Shown in pieces: positions 12,602 to 16,569 of a stretch of 16,784 nucleotides of DNA. The translations under genes were made by a program, and so were the position numbers. The notes below the pieces were generated by a model. The model searched no databases, was not told the origin of the DNA, and worked only from the letters and a program-made list of their open reading frames with translations. Source of the DNA: Candidatus Jordarchaeales archaeon (GTDB lineage Archaea > Asgardarchaeota > Jordiarchaeia > Jordiarchaeales > Freyrarchaeaceae). The stretch is taken from contig JAWCFL010000036.1 in NCBI GenBank assembly GCA_038858525.1, positions 1 to 16,784 on the forward strand, given 5' to 3'. Every line of letters begins with the position of its first letter. Within the stretch, counting starts at the first letter, position 1.

Positions 12602-12998
12602 GGCGGCGTGCCAGGAGTAATCCATCTTCTGTTGGGAGACCGTTGTTACCAACGGCCTCTTGGCGGCATTCGGCTATGCGCCCTACCCGCCGCCTCCCGT
12701 GGGCGTCATCGGCAGCCTATTTGGGCTTGCACCCCCGAGGATGGCCGTTTCAACGGTCCCACCTGCATCCTCAGCGGGTTATCTCGGCGCTTGTCGCCAA
12801 GCGCCTTCTCGGGAGCCCCTCAGCCGCTTCATCGTCATCCCGCAAGTGGACGTGTCGTTTGCAGCCTTTTCACCGGTTTCTGCTCCAGAGCCAAGCCTCT
12901 CGGCTTGCGCCTCGCGGCGCTCGGGTCCCACGATGGTGGATGGAATTTCCTCAGCGCTCTATTGGAGCGCCGTGAGCCGCCCTCTGGCTCGCCGCCTC
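12600..12998 (-). ncRNA. rnpB: RNase P RNA, archaeal type A, about 399 nt
   Basis: GC-rich island. On the minus strand: P1 GAGGCGGCGAGCCAG/CUGGCACGCCGCCUC; P2 GGCGGC/GCCGCC; P3 GCGCUC/GAGCGC; P4 GAGGAAAUUCCAUC with AACAGAAGAUGGAUUA; P8 GCGCC-GCGA-GGCGC; P9 AAGCC-GAGA-GGCUU; CR motifs AGCAGAAAC and UGAAACGG; GCAAGCCCAAAUAGG; P6 CGUGGG/CCCACG; L15 GGUA; P19 GAGGCCGUUG-GUAA-CAACGGUCUC. Confidence 0.97.
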
Positions 12999-13476: not shown

Positions 13477-14434
13477 TTACCTCTCCTTTCTTATTCTAGC
13501 TATGAAGAAGGCATCAGTGTAGTTATCATGTGGATATATTCGCATGCAGTACTTTAAATCTGGATGAAATGTTTTTTCTTTGTATTCTGTTAAACCGGGA
13601 TGGAAACGGATGCCTTTGATTTCGAAGTACTCGACGCGAGCCTTTCCTTCCTTTGAGAGAAGATAATTAACGACTGCCTCGTTTTCGAATGGATGGATGC
13701 TGCATGTTGAGTAAACTAAGATTCCGCCTGGTTTTAACATTTTGAATCCGGCGATTAGAAGTCCTCTTTGAAGAACGTGAAGTGACTTGACTCTTTCTTC
13801 CGTAAAGTTGGATGGAAATTTACTTAGAAAGTGTCCTGAGGAGGAGCAGGGGGCGTCGACAAGAACTTTGTCAAAATGGTCTTTGATGATTGATGGAAGT
13901 TTTCGTCCATCAAACATAGTTACCGCGGTGTTTATAACTCCGCAGAGCTGCAAGTTAAAACCTAGGGAGGATATCCTTTTGAGGGAGACGTCGTTGGCTA
14001 TTATGGCACCCTTGTTTTTCATGAGCTGAGCTATTTGCGTCGTCTTTGAGCCTGGAGCTGCGCACATGTCTAAAACGTAATCTTCTGGCTTCGGCTCCAA
14101 AAATAAGGGAGGAATCATGCTTCCTCCTTCTTGAATGTACACGTAACCTAATGCACGTTCATATGCGATGTAAGAAAGAGGGTTTTCTCTAGGCTCGAGC
14201 ACCCTGAAACCGTCATCGAAACCAGCTTAGGGGGGAGAGCTTCACGTTTCTTTCTTCCAATCGCTTTAATACTTCAAGTTTAGGCTTTTTCAAGGTGTTT
14301 AACCTAACAAAGAATTCAGGAAATTTTTCTGTGCAAGCGAAAACCTCGCTGGATTCTTCCCCGAGAAGAGAAACATAAAGCTTAGCGATTTCAGGTGGAA
14401 GCCCACATGCTTGATGAACGTTCAATTCACTCAC
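13477..14434 (-). CDS. RsmB/NOP-family RNA m5C methyltransferase, split by a +1 frameshift near 14216-14226 (about 318 aa if joined)
   Basis: The 14213-14434 ORF carries the N-terminal VRLNTLK motif. The 13477-14220 frame carries YIQE..SM.PP, VLDMCAAPGSKT, AND, motif IV DAPCSSSG, motif VI YSTCS..P.ENE, and RIYPH...DAFFIA. Both catalytic cysteines are intact. Confidence 0.88.
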
Positions 14435-14664: not shown

Positions 14665-15360
14665 TTAGATGGATTTTATTTTTCCTTTTCGCGCTAAAAT
14701 GCTTTGAACAAGCATTGATGCGCCCAGGATGGCTGTTGTGCTCGGTAGCACGTTGACGAGGCTTAGAGATAGAATGGCGCCACCTAAGGTTAAGGACAGC
14801 TTAGACCCTTTACTTTCACCCTTGTTTAAAATGTTTCTTCTGGTGTTTAGCACGTATAGTTCTATTTCTTTCATGTTGAGGCGACGGGAAAGCGATTTGA
14901 CTAATTTGTTTTTCTTCCATTTCATTGAGGCTACCGTCATGTGACGCTTAGCTAGGTTATATAGTTGAACCCGTGTAAGTTGGTAAAGCATCTGCTCCTT
15001 TATGCTGAAGGTTTTTGTTATTGGCCTTCCTTCAAGAAGCGCTGAACATGAAAGATAGAGCGTCAGGAGCGCTATCGTGAAGCTTGGAACCGCAACTATT
15101 ATAACGCCCCAAATAACCAGTATTCCAATAGCGATAATTAGGACGGCTACACCATAGAAGAGCAAGTCAACGAACGCGAAGGAGCAAGCTTTTCTAAGGA
15201 CGTAACTTAGCCCTACAAGTGATATTGTCGCCCCAATAGCCATTGTCAGTAAAGATTCATAGGAGACGAAAAAACCAGTAGTTTGCACAAGTAAGCCAAC
15301 TAGCAGAAAAGCCCACATCTGCTTTAGCGGCGTAATTTTTCCATCGATTTTTCCCCACAT
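14665..15360 (-). CDS. Hypothetical multi-pass membrane protein with a basic soluble loop
   Basis: About 4 N-terminal TM segments, a Lys/Arg-rich helical loop (about aa 111-187) and C-terminal hydrophobic segments. GGAGG SD upstream of the ATG. Confidence 0.75.
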   Translation of the reverse strand: MWGKIDGKITPLKQMWAFLLVGLLVQTTGFFVSYESLLTMAIGATISLVGLSYVLRKACSFAFVDLLFYGVAVLIIAIGILVIWGVIIVAVPSFTIALLTLYLSCSALLEGRPITKTFSIKEQMLYQLTRVQLYNLAKRHMTVASMKWKKNKLVKSLSRRLNMKEIELYVLNTRRNILNKGESKGSKLSLTLGGAILSLSLVNVLPSTTAILGASMLVQSILARKGKIKSI

Positions 15361-15836
15361 TCCTCCAACCCCAAATTAAACAATTTTTCCGTTCAAGCAA
15401 CCAATGAGGAAGCATGAGAAACTAAAAAAAGGTTTCCTGCCAGCTTATTCAAAAGAGCTTATACTAAACAACCCCAGCTATTTTAAGATGGAATAAAACG
15501 ACGCATATAAAGGTTTTCATGAGTAAACCACTAAATTCGCCTTAGCCAAAAGAAAGTTGCATATCAATATTTTGAGCCAAGAGCTTGCATGCCATTTTAT
15601 CTCCTTTAATGCAGCTTTTATTTTGCCAGAACTGTTCAGGTGTGTCAAAAAGGGGCCTTAGATTTTTGACGGTTAAAACCAGAATAAGGATTGGTTTTGC
15701 TGTTCCTGAAGGACATTAAAAGAGATAAAAATAAAAGAGTGAAGCAAAAAGCCGGCTATCTTGCAAAGGTTGGTTTTAAGCATTACGAAGTTTAGATACG
15801 TAAAGTTCAAATAAATCAAAGGCCAAAGGAGTAATT

Positions 15837-16140
15837 GGGCTCCCTTATCGAGGACTGGGCCGACTGCCCAAGCGGGGTGGATGAGGCTTGGAGCAAGGAG
15901 GGAGCTACATTATTGGGGGAGACCGCCGCGCAAAACCCTACTTGAACGGACTTTCACCGAGAAAAAGGGAAGGTATAAAACTTCCGGGATGAGGTGGAGT
16001 TTACCCAAGTAGGGGACAGCGGCTTAGAAACGCCAGGTATGGCTCCCGGGTTTGAGAGCATGGTTGAGGGGGGCGAATGCTCCACTATGAAACCATGTGT
16101 TAGTTACCTCGGGAACACTGGCGTTTCTCCCCCTAATGTT
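15837..16140 (+). ncRNA. Three-hairpin box H/ACA pseudouridylation guide RNA (predicted)
   Basis: Three stem-pocket-stem-K-turn units. ACA boxes lie at 15907-15909, 16016-16018 and 16115-16117, which is 14, 15 and 16 nt from the 3' pocket start. The G-U pairs are consistent only with the + strand. Folded by eye. Confidence 0.8.
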
Positions 16141-16176: not shown

Positions 16177-16251
16177 TGGGGGGACAGAAATTTTAAAAGC
16201 TTCTAAGATTGTTAGGGTTTAGGAGAAGGAGCGATGTAGGTGAGGGCGACA

Positions 16252-16569
16252 TTGCCTAGGAAGAGAGATAAGGACCATGAGGTAATTGAAGTTAAGGACG
16301 TGCGAGTGCCTATGGAGGGGGAGATTTTAGGAGTAGTTGAAAGGATGGTTGGCAACGATAGGCTTATTGTTAACTGTACTGATGGGAAGACGCGATTGGC
16401 GAGAATAAGAGGCAAATTTAAGAAGAAGGTTTGGATAAGGAATGGCGATGTTGTTCTCGTGGCGCCTTGGGATTTTCAAGATGATCGTGCCGATGTTGTG
16501 TGGAGATACAATGAGGGAGAGGTTAAGTGGCTTAAAAATAGAGGGTACTTGAACGGGTTAAATGTTTAA
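16252..16569 (+). CDS. eif1a: Translation initiation factor aIF-1A
   Basis: VRVP.EGEILGVVERMVGNDRLIVNCTDGKTRLARIRGKFKKKVWIRNGDVVLVAPWDFQ...DVVWRY. Start is probably TTG 16252 after a GGTGA SD; the ORF track gives GTG 16240. Confidence 0.96.
   Translation: MPRKRDKDHEVIEVKDVRVPMEGEILGVVERMVGNDRLIVNCTDGKTRLARIRGKFKKKVWIRNGDVVLVAPWDFQDDRADVVWRYNEGEVKWLKNRGYLNGLNV

Follow-up and report, generated by a model that had tools for sequence, protein, structure and literature searches.

A three-hairpin RNA gene upstream of aIF-1A in a Jordarchaeia genome, a probable box H/ACA guide and ortholog of Pab40/HgcG

The window analysed here, 16,784 nucleotides long, is a whole contig (C36) of the Asgard genome G000. 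Between a 231-aa ORF (14665-15360, - strand) and the aIF-1A gene (16240-16569, + strand) it contains a non-coding stretch. A preliminary description had proposed a three-unit H/ACA guide RNA at this place, and the expected layout, GA/UGA elements, ACA boxes and guides complementary to 23S rRNA were all recovered in each unit. Positions 15838 to ~16133 of the + strand very probably represent a box H/ACA guide sRNA gene of ~300 nt whose product has three guide hairpins and is orthologous, in Jordarchaeia (Asgard), to the RNA known as Pab40, Pf7, Pho40 or Afu4 (Rfam HgcG). The three hairpins most likely direct Cbf5 to form pseudouridine at three 23S rRNA uridines. The RNA class, its proteins and its mechanism are already textbook matter and the closest family has a name; because this described family already contains the ortholog, the novelty of the Jordarchaeia RNA is lowered. 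A search of a limited literature collection found no paper describing H/ACA sRNA genes of Asgard archaea.

All three units have the hairpin-pocket-hairpin layout of archaeal H/ACA sRNAs, in which a lower stem of 7-9 bp and an upper stem flank a pocket with strands of ~5-11 nt, and all nine of their stems covary across 26 homologs (Table 1). Stems, K-turn elements and ACA boxes can be read directly from the sequence where the preliminary description had put them, with some revision of stem lengths. The lower stem and ACA of unit 2 stand, but its upper stem, drawn earlier as a 9/8-nt version, gives way to a covarying stem of 7 bp; the 5-bp lower stem of unit 3 (UCCCG/CGGGA) is retained and can be lengthened by two pairs. 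In every unit the stack consists of 7 Watson-Crick pairs, 2 G-A pairs and a single closing layer that is non-canonical (A-A, C-U, G-U). A GA in the 5' strand faces (N)UGA in the 3' strand in every unit and both elements are conserved; the K-turn region of unit 2 is less regular in some orthologs. An ACA is found just 3' of each lower stem (starting at 15907, 16016 and 16115). In units 1, 2 and 3, this ACA is 15, 16 and 16 nt away if the count starts at the final Watson-Crick pair of the upper stem, and 14, 14 and 16 nt if it starts at the first guide base with a predicted pairing. Both counts fall in the 14-16 nt range claimed earlier and replace the values given then (14, 15 and 16 nt). According to Toffano-Nioche et al., ~10 (9-10) layers stack above the pocket up to the second G-A pair and the ANA is at a distance of 14-15 (at most 16) nt, with 14-15 nt in productive Pyrococcus folds (PMC4652768). 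Given the layers counted above, the layout fits these rules, with unit 3 (16 nt) at the long end. All homologs with a unit 2 have ACA 2, and ACA 1 and ACA 3 are kept in most homologs, a few having CCA, UCA, AUA or GCA. Across the phylum, conservation is strongest in the pocket strands, the ACA boxes and the GA/UGA elements.

Table 1. Features of the putative guide RNA gene (positions in the window).
Feature	Position	Strand	Description
TATA-like element (putative promoter), TTCAAATAAAT	15806..15816	+	centred ~28 nt upstream of G15838
Unit 1, H/ACA	15838..15909	+	aligns to motif 1 of Rfam HgcG
Unit 1 lower stem	15838-45/15899-906	+	8 bp
Unit 1 upper stem	15855-61/15885-91	+	7 bp
Unit 1 guides	5' 15846-54; 3' 15892-98	+	
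Unit 1 K-turn	15862-63; 15880-84	+	GA opposite GAUGA
Unit 1 distal hairpin	15864-80	+	
Unit 1 ACA	15907-09	+	
H-A 5' strand, GGGGGAGA	15915..15922	+	pairs with 16126-33, encloses units 2 and 3
H-B 5' strand, GCCGC	15925..15929	+	pairs with 16019-23
Unit 2, H/ACA	15936..16018	+	helices 6-7, 87-90% paired
Unit 2 lower stem	15936-44/16006-14	+	9 bp
Unit 2 upper stem, UUUCACC/GGUGGAG	15952-58/15993-99	+	7 bp, covarying
Unit 2 guides	5' 15945-51; 3' 16000-05	+	3' guide possibly to 16007
Unit 2 K-turn elements	15959-60; 15988-92	+	GA with GAUGA
Unit 2 apical hairpin	15968-85	+	
Unit 2 ACA	16016-18	+	
H-B 3' strand, GCGGC	16019..16023	+	begins directly after ACA 2
H-C 5' strand, GAAACGCCAG	16027..16036	+	pairs with 16118-27
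Unit 3, H/ACA	16044..16117	+	aligns to motif 3 of Rfam HgcG; helices 10-12, 86-87% paired
Unit 3 lower stem	16044-48/16110-14	+	extendable to 7 bp (16044-50/16108-14)
Unit 3 upper stem	16058-65/16091-98	+	
Unit 3 guides	5' 16051-57; 3' 16099-107	+	
Unit 3 K-turn	16066-67; 16086-90	+	GA opposite UAUGA
Unit 3 distal hairpin	16068-85	+	
Unit 3 ACA	16115-17	+	
3' strands of H-C (16118-27) and H-A (16126-33)	16118..16133	+	two bases contested between the helices

Folding, an Infernal search against Rfam and a covariance model had been suggested as checks in the preliminary description, and all three were run. The fold of the + strand has a z-score of -5.1. At Rfam gathering thresholds, the whole window yields RNase P RNA only, with no match in 15838-16133; the RNA, correctly described before as unannotated and missed by gene callers, escapes this search as well. 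With E-value reporting, the sole meaningful match is RF00064 (HgcG/Pab40; 28.6 bits, E-value: 3.9e-6), which covers the full model length on the + strand. This score does not reach the gathering threshold of RF00064 (77 bits), and the sequence is accordingly classed as a distant homolog of RF00064 and not as a member by Rfam's own rule. Multi-hairpin K-turn H/ACA RNAs of Archaeoglobus and Thermococcales had been named beforehand as precedents, and the closest match is indeed to that family, Pab40/Pf7/Afu4.

BLAST-level homologs are found in each of the four relatives within the family, three of them other species of the genus and the fourth from the sister genus. A metagenome pattern scan returned two contigs only, near-identical to G003 and G004, and added no diversity. 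Because a MAFFT alignment alone mis-registers several stems, a covariance model (R1) was built from the ortholog alignment and the structure proposed here, and the sequences were realigned. R1 detects full-length homologs in 10/11 Jordarchaeia genomes and, under strict filters, in 27 of the 151 sampled Asgard genomes (13/52 genera). In an alignment of 26 Asgard homologs fitted to R1, standard pairs make up 88.9% of cells, against 66.7% after shuffling; both sides have changed in 68 of the 78 pairs, and the covariation score is 0.51, compared with 0.19 when shuffled and <=0.13 with the partners slid. None of 500 shuffles reached the observed value on any measure. Plain MAFFT alignments show the same compensatory changes, and RNAalifold independently recovers most helices. 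The helices of unit 1 (helices 1-3) are 86-93% paired in the 26-sequence alignment, with double changes in 18/20 pairs. The stems, K-turns and ACA boxes anticipated in the preliminary description are conserved among these homologs.

In addition to the stems of the units, the RNA is predicted to form closing helices (H-A, H-B and H-C). H-B (helix 5) is 96.7% paired with double changes in 5/5 pairs, and is also recovered by RNAalifold on the MAFFT alignment. H-C (helix 9) is 98.9% paired, all eight of the pairs modelled show double changes, and a position can have as many as 6 pair types; its compensatory changes are already visible in the model-free MAFFT alignment. H-A (helix 4) is 74% paired, differs in register between genera and is missing in family f2, such that its support is weaker and restricted to this lineage. 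The RNA probably extends with these helices to ~16133 and has its 3' end there; a pyrimidine/T-rich tail follows this position. As H-B and H-C close units 2 and 3 beyond the ACA, ACA 2 and ACA 3 would be located in asymmetric internal loops and not in free linkers. H-B and H-C are taken here as a presumptive structural scaffold, and closing helices around ACA boxes are a possible structural variant.

The genomic context of the RNA differs between lineages. The RNA is located 100 nt upstream of aIF-1A on the same strand, and this adjacency is found in 5/5 genomes of family f1. Within the TATA-like element upstream of unit 1, TTCAAATA is invariant in the five family-f1 orthologs and its flanks vary; judging by the usual distance from TATA to start, the TTCAAATAAAT/TTCAAATA element is a putative archaeal TATA promoter. 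The copy in the sister family follows the 23S gene at a distance of 160-330 nt, in the same orientation (L031 = G006:C1:1840049-1840346; G008:C44; G005:C204), and is ~50 kb away from aIF-1A; it may be co-transcribed with the rRNA operon. This location indicates that the RNA is not tied to aIF-1A. In G002 and G004, the RNA precedes the 23S gene by ~3.6 kb. An AT-rich TATA-like element, AATTTTAAAAG, is present at 16189-16199 (+ strand) of the window, ~40 nt upstream of the aIF-1A GTG start; it includes TTTTAAAA (~16192-99) and suggests that aIF-1A has its own promoter and a short leader. Elsewhere in the window, an archaeal RNase P RNA is encoded at 12606-12992 on the - strand (Rfam RF00373, 174.6 bits), and two adjacent ORFs of 241 aa and 73 aa (13477-14434, - strand) resemble a split RNA methyltransferase with a SAM-dependent catalytic part.

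The constant position of the RNA just upstream of aIF-1A in all five family-f1 genomes would also suit an aIF-1A mRNA with a structured leader acting in cis (or another structured RNA, not a guide, that merely resembles H/ACA hairpins), were it not that the sister family carries its homolog beside the 23S gene, far from aIF-1A, that conservation peaks in the pocket strands, ACA and GA/UGA and not near the aIF-1A start codon, and that the TATA-like TTTTAAAA intervenes between the RNA and that start. Both are considered very unlikely. Smaller still is the chance that the conserved structure belongs to a minus-strand transcript or that overlapping small ORFs (43-60 aa) are what is encoded. Folding alone does not settle the strand, as the minus strand does equally well (z-score of -5.8), but the strand is fixed as + by the excess of G-U over A-C cells on that strand (202 vs 51) and by the polarity of the ACA boxes and K-turns, which fit the + strand only. 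ORFs of 43, 43 and 60 aa do overlap the region; orthologs, however, differ by indels of 1 and 2 bases within them, and the substitutions in the stems are compensatory. A guide RNA transcribed from the + strand is thus the preferred reading, and the identity of its targets can be considered.

As the 23S rRNA of this genome is not assembled, targets were read on the 23S rRNA of G002 (same genus) and on the genome's own 16S rRNA. E. coli numbering was taken from an alignment to the E. coli rrl gene, calibrated on known landmarks, and target scores were compared with those of 200 shuffled guides. Guide strands of all three units are complementary to 23S rRNA around an unpaired U-N, with a clarity that differs by unit. 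The prediction is strong for unit 1, whose target would be U2621 (G002) in the peptidyl-transferase region, the equivalent of E. coli U2496. The guides GCAAG and AUCGAGG(+U) pair with 5+8 bp around this position (score: 32), and 0/200 shuffled guides reach this score. In the 14 Asgard 23S sequences with that context, the target U is invariant, the next base is U, A or C and both flanks are constant, as the U-N rule predicts. Unit 1 is missing altogether in the homologs L039 (G016), L041 (G036), L042 (G026) and L043 (G053). 23S rRNA was recovered for two of these genomes, G016 and G026, and in both the base immediately 5' of the unit 1 target U is G and not C.

By homology, unit 2 is predicted to target U2711 (G002), corresponding to E. 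coli U2586, beside U2585. This site is exactly 90 nt after the unit 1 site. Unit 2 guides of other lineages pair with 6-7 + 7-8 bp around U2711, and the pairing is strong in every one of them, whereas the guides of this genome form only 5+5 bp with two mismatches there. The target of unit 3, a prediction of moderate strength that is marginal on its own, would be U2047 (G002) in the helix 69 stem, the equivalent of E. coli U1921. Its conserved GUUA(G) and GAGA pair with 5+7 bp around U2047, and 6% of shuffled guides reach this score; the ACA spacing is 16 nt, compared with 14-15 nt in productive Pyrococcus folds (PMC4652768). Registers aimed at U1915 or U1917 leave conserved guide bases unpaired and are therefore ranked below the U1921 register.

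Several other candidate targets were rejected. For unit 2, 23S positions 31 and 1097 would require parts of the upper stem, and 16S U556 is supported within one genus only. For unit 3, 23S position 1030 offers a 10-bp one-arm match with no U at the required place, the 5' guide does not pair in a Pyrococcus-like register on loop U1915, and a register with a three-nucleotide bulge on U1917 leaves conserved guide bases unused. Several Asgard 23S genes are interrupted next to helix 69 (L056/L070 in G026, L059/L072 in G011, L060/L071 in G042, L062/L075 in G021, L061/L074 in G008 and L064/L073 in G111), which suggests introns of ~30 to 800 nt. The break occurs after ...CUCUUAA or ...GACUCUC, inside the stretch predicted to pair with the 5' guide of unit 3.

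It is possible, though on balance doubtful, that the RNA is an H/ACA RNA in which not all units guide modification at the predicted sites: unit 2 may, within the genus Jordarchaeum, have shifted to another target (16S U556, for example) or to none, and unit 3 may act on U1915 or U1917. The best complementarity of unit 2 in this genome, with a score that 19% of shuffled guides reach, is at 16S U556 (5+8 bp) and not at U2711, where two changes specific to the genus, an A inserted into the 5' guide and a U-U mismatch adjoining the target, weaken the pairing. A similar drift is known for Pab40, as a single point mutation re-aimed motif 2 in P. abyssi (Muller et al., PMC2377435). However, the guide of the sister genus (G004) does not support the 16S U556 site, and the U2711 pairing is strong in all other lineages. 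Unit 3 can also adopt a non-canonical register in which AGUUAC pairs with rRNA 2036-41 and GAGAG with 2046-50, leaving the U1917 equivalent unpaired. Nevertheless, the U1921 register uses precisely the unit 3 bases conserved phylum-wide (GUUA(G) and GAGA), which are unpaired in the alternatives. U2621, U2711 and U2047 therefore remain the preferred targets of units 1, 2 and 3.

Genes for Cbf5 (TruB_N), Nop10, Gar1 and L7Ae are all present in the genome. The Cbf5-like and Nop10 genes are ~2 kb apart (G000:C1:177136-179608; L076-L078). The TruB_N match is in two pieces, with one TGA inside the first piece.

The proposed model for the function of the RNA, based on what is established for its family, is as follows. 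The RNA would be transcribed from its own TATA-like promoter. In each hairpin, L7Ae would bind the K-turn, and Cbf5-Nop10-Gar1 would bind the lower stem, the ACA box and the pocket. 23S rRNA would pair with the two pocket strands, leaving a U-N unpaired between the two paired segments, and Cbf5 would convert that U to pseudouridine.

These results bear on annotation, on rRNA modification and on the age of the family. The RNA gene falls into an annotation gap, as it escapes gene callers and Rfam thresholds, and model R1 recovers it across Asgard archaea. Three concrete candidate pseudouridine positions are now named for Asgard 23S rRNA, and one of them, in the helix 69 stem, corresponds to a site modified in yeast and human. 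As a three-motif guide directed at the peptidyl-transferase centre and helix 69 is found in both Euryarchaeota and Asgard archaea, the family appears to be old. It is tentatively suggested, as an unlikely but conceivable interpretation, that the Asgard form is a structurally distinct H/ACA architecture, with closing helices H-B and H-C (plus H-A within the family), ACA 2 and ACA 3 in internal loops and the units tied in one compact junction, and that unit 3, whose Pyrococcus counterpart is aimed at helix 69 loop U1915, has been redirected from that loop to the stem position equal to yeast pseudouridine 2264 and human 3747. If so, the closing helices could alter Cbf5 docking or order the assembly of the three RNPs, and an archaeal-type guide would serve a eukaryote-type modification site in those archaea that are most closely related to eukaryotes.

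Pab40/Pf7/Pho40/Afu4, the HgcG family (RF00064) of Thermococcales and Archaeoglobus, likewise has three H/ACA hairpins, arranged in the same order and each carrying an ACA and a K-turn or K-loop. The cmscan alignment to HgcG is full-length and places units 1 and 3 on motifs 1 and 3. Pab40 and unit 1 have a CGAGGA 5' guide in common, and the unit 1 site matches P. abyssi pseudouridine 2588, which is assigned to Pab40 motif 1 by Muller et al. 2008 (PMC2377435). Under the rules of the same authors, motif 2 of Pf7 and Afu4 is directed at the equivalent of P. abyssi 2678, 90 nt after 2588 (PMC2377435), the same downstream site as that predicted for unit 2; this position is modified in Haloarcula, Drosophila and mouse (PMC2377435). 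The order of the three targets is likewise common to HgcG: a site in the peptidyl-transferase centre, a site 90 nt further on and helix 69 (U2621, U2711 and U2047). The third motif differs in detail. Pab40 motif 3 is aimed at a helix 69 loop uridine (P. abyssi 2016 = U1915), and the unit 3 site is 6 nt 3' of it. The 5' guide of unit 3 is GAGA where the Rfam consensus has GGUUAG, such that its canonical target would be U1921 in the stem and not U1915 in the loop.

The closing helices also distinguish the Jordarchaeia RNA from HgcG. The spacer from ACA 1 to hairpin 3 is 131 nt here and 79 nt in HgcG, and the ~50 additional nucleotides hold H-B and H-C. Judging from the consensus line alone, Pyrococcus appears to be without at least H-C, since the Rfam HgcG consensus places hairpin 3 directly after ACA 2. 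The solved Pyrococcus RNPs are laid out differently as well: in the RNA described here, a helix starts immediately after ACA 2 and ACA 3. Haloferax volcanii sR-h45 is a double-hairpin H/ACA sRNA that serves helix 69 and the equivalent of E. coli position 2586. Compared by description only, it differs in having two hairpins and in being aimed, as described, at loop positions 1915/1917.

Helix 69 also invites a comparison with eukaryotes. By arithmetic, the position targeted by yeast snR3 (25S pseudouridine 2264 = human 3747, PMC2794176) equals the predicted target position of unit 3. The spacing is alike, with E. coli 1921 located 6 nt 3' of 1915 and yeast 2264 located 6 nt 3' of 2258, and the Asgard helix 69 sequence reads like the eukaryotic one. 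Eukaryotic H/ACA snoRNAs have two hairpins joined by an H box hinge and no K-turn; the Jordarchaeia RNA is of the archaeal type, and its likeness to snR3 is one of position.
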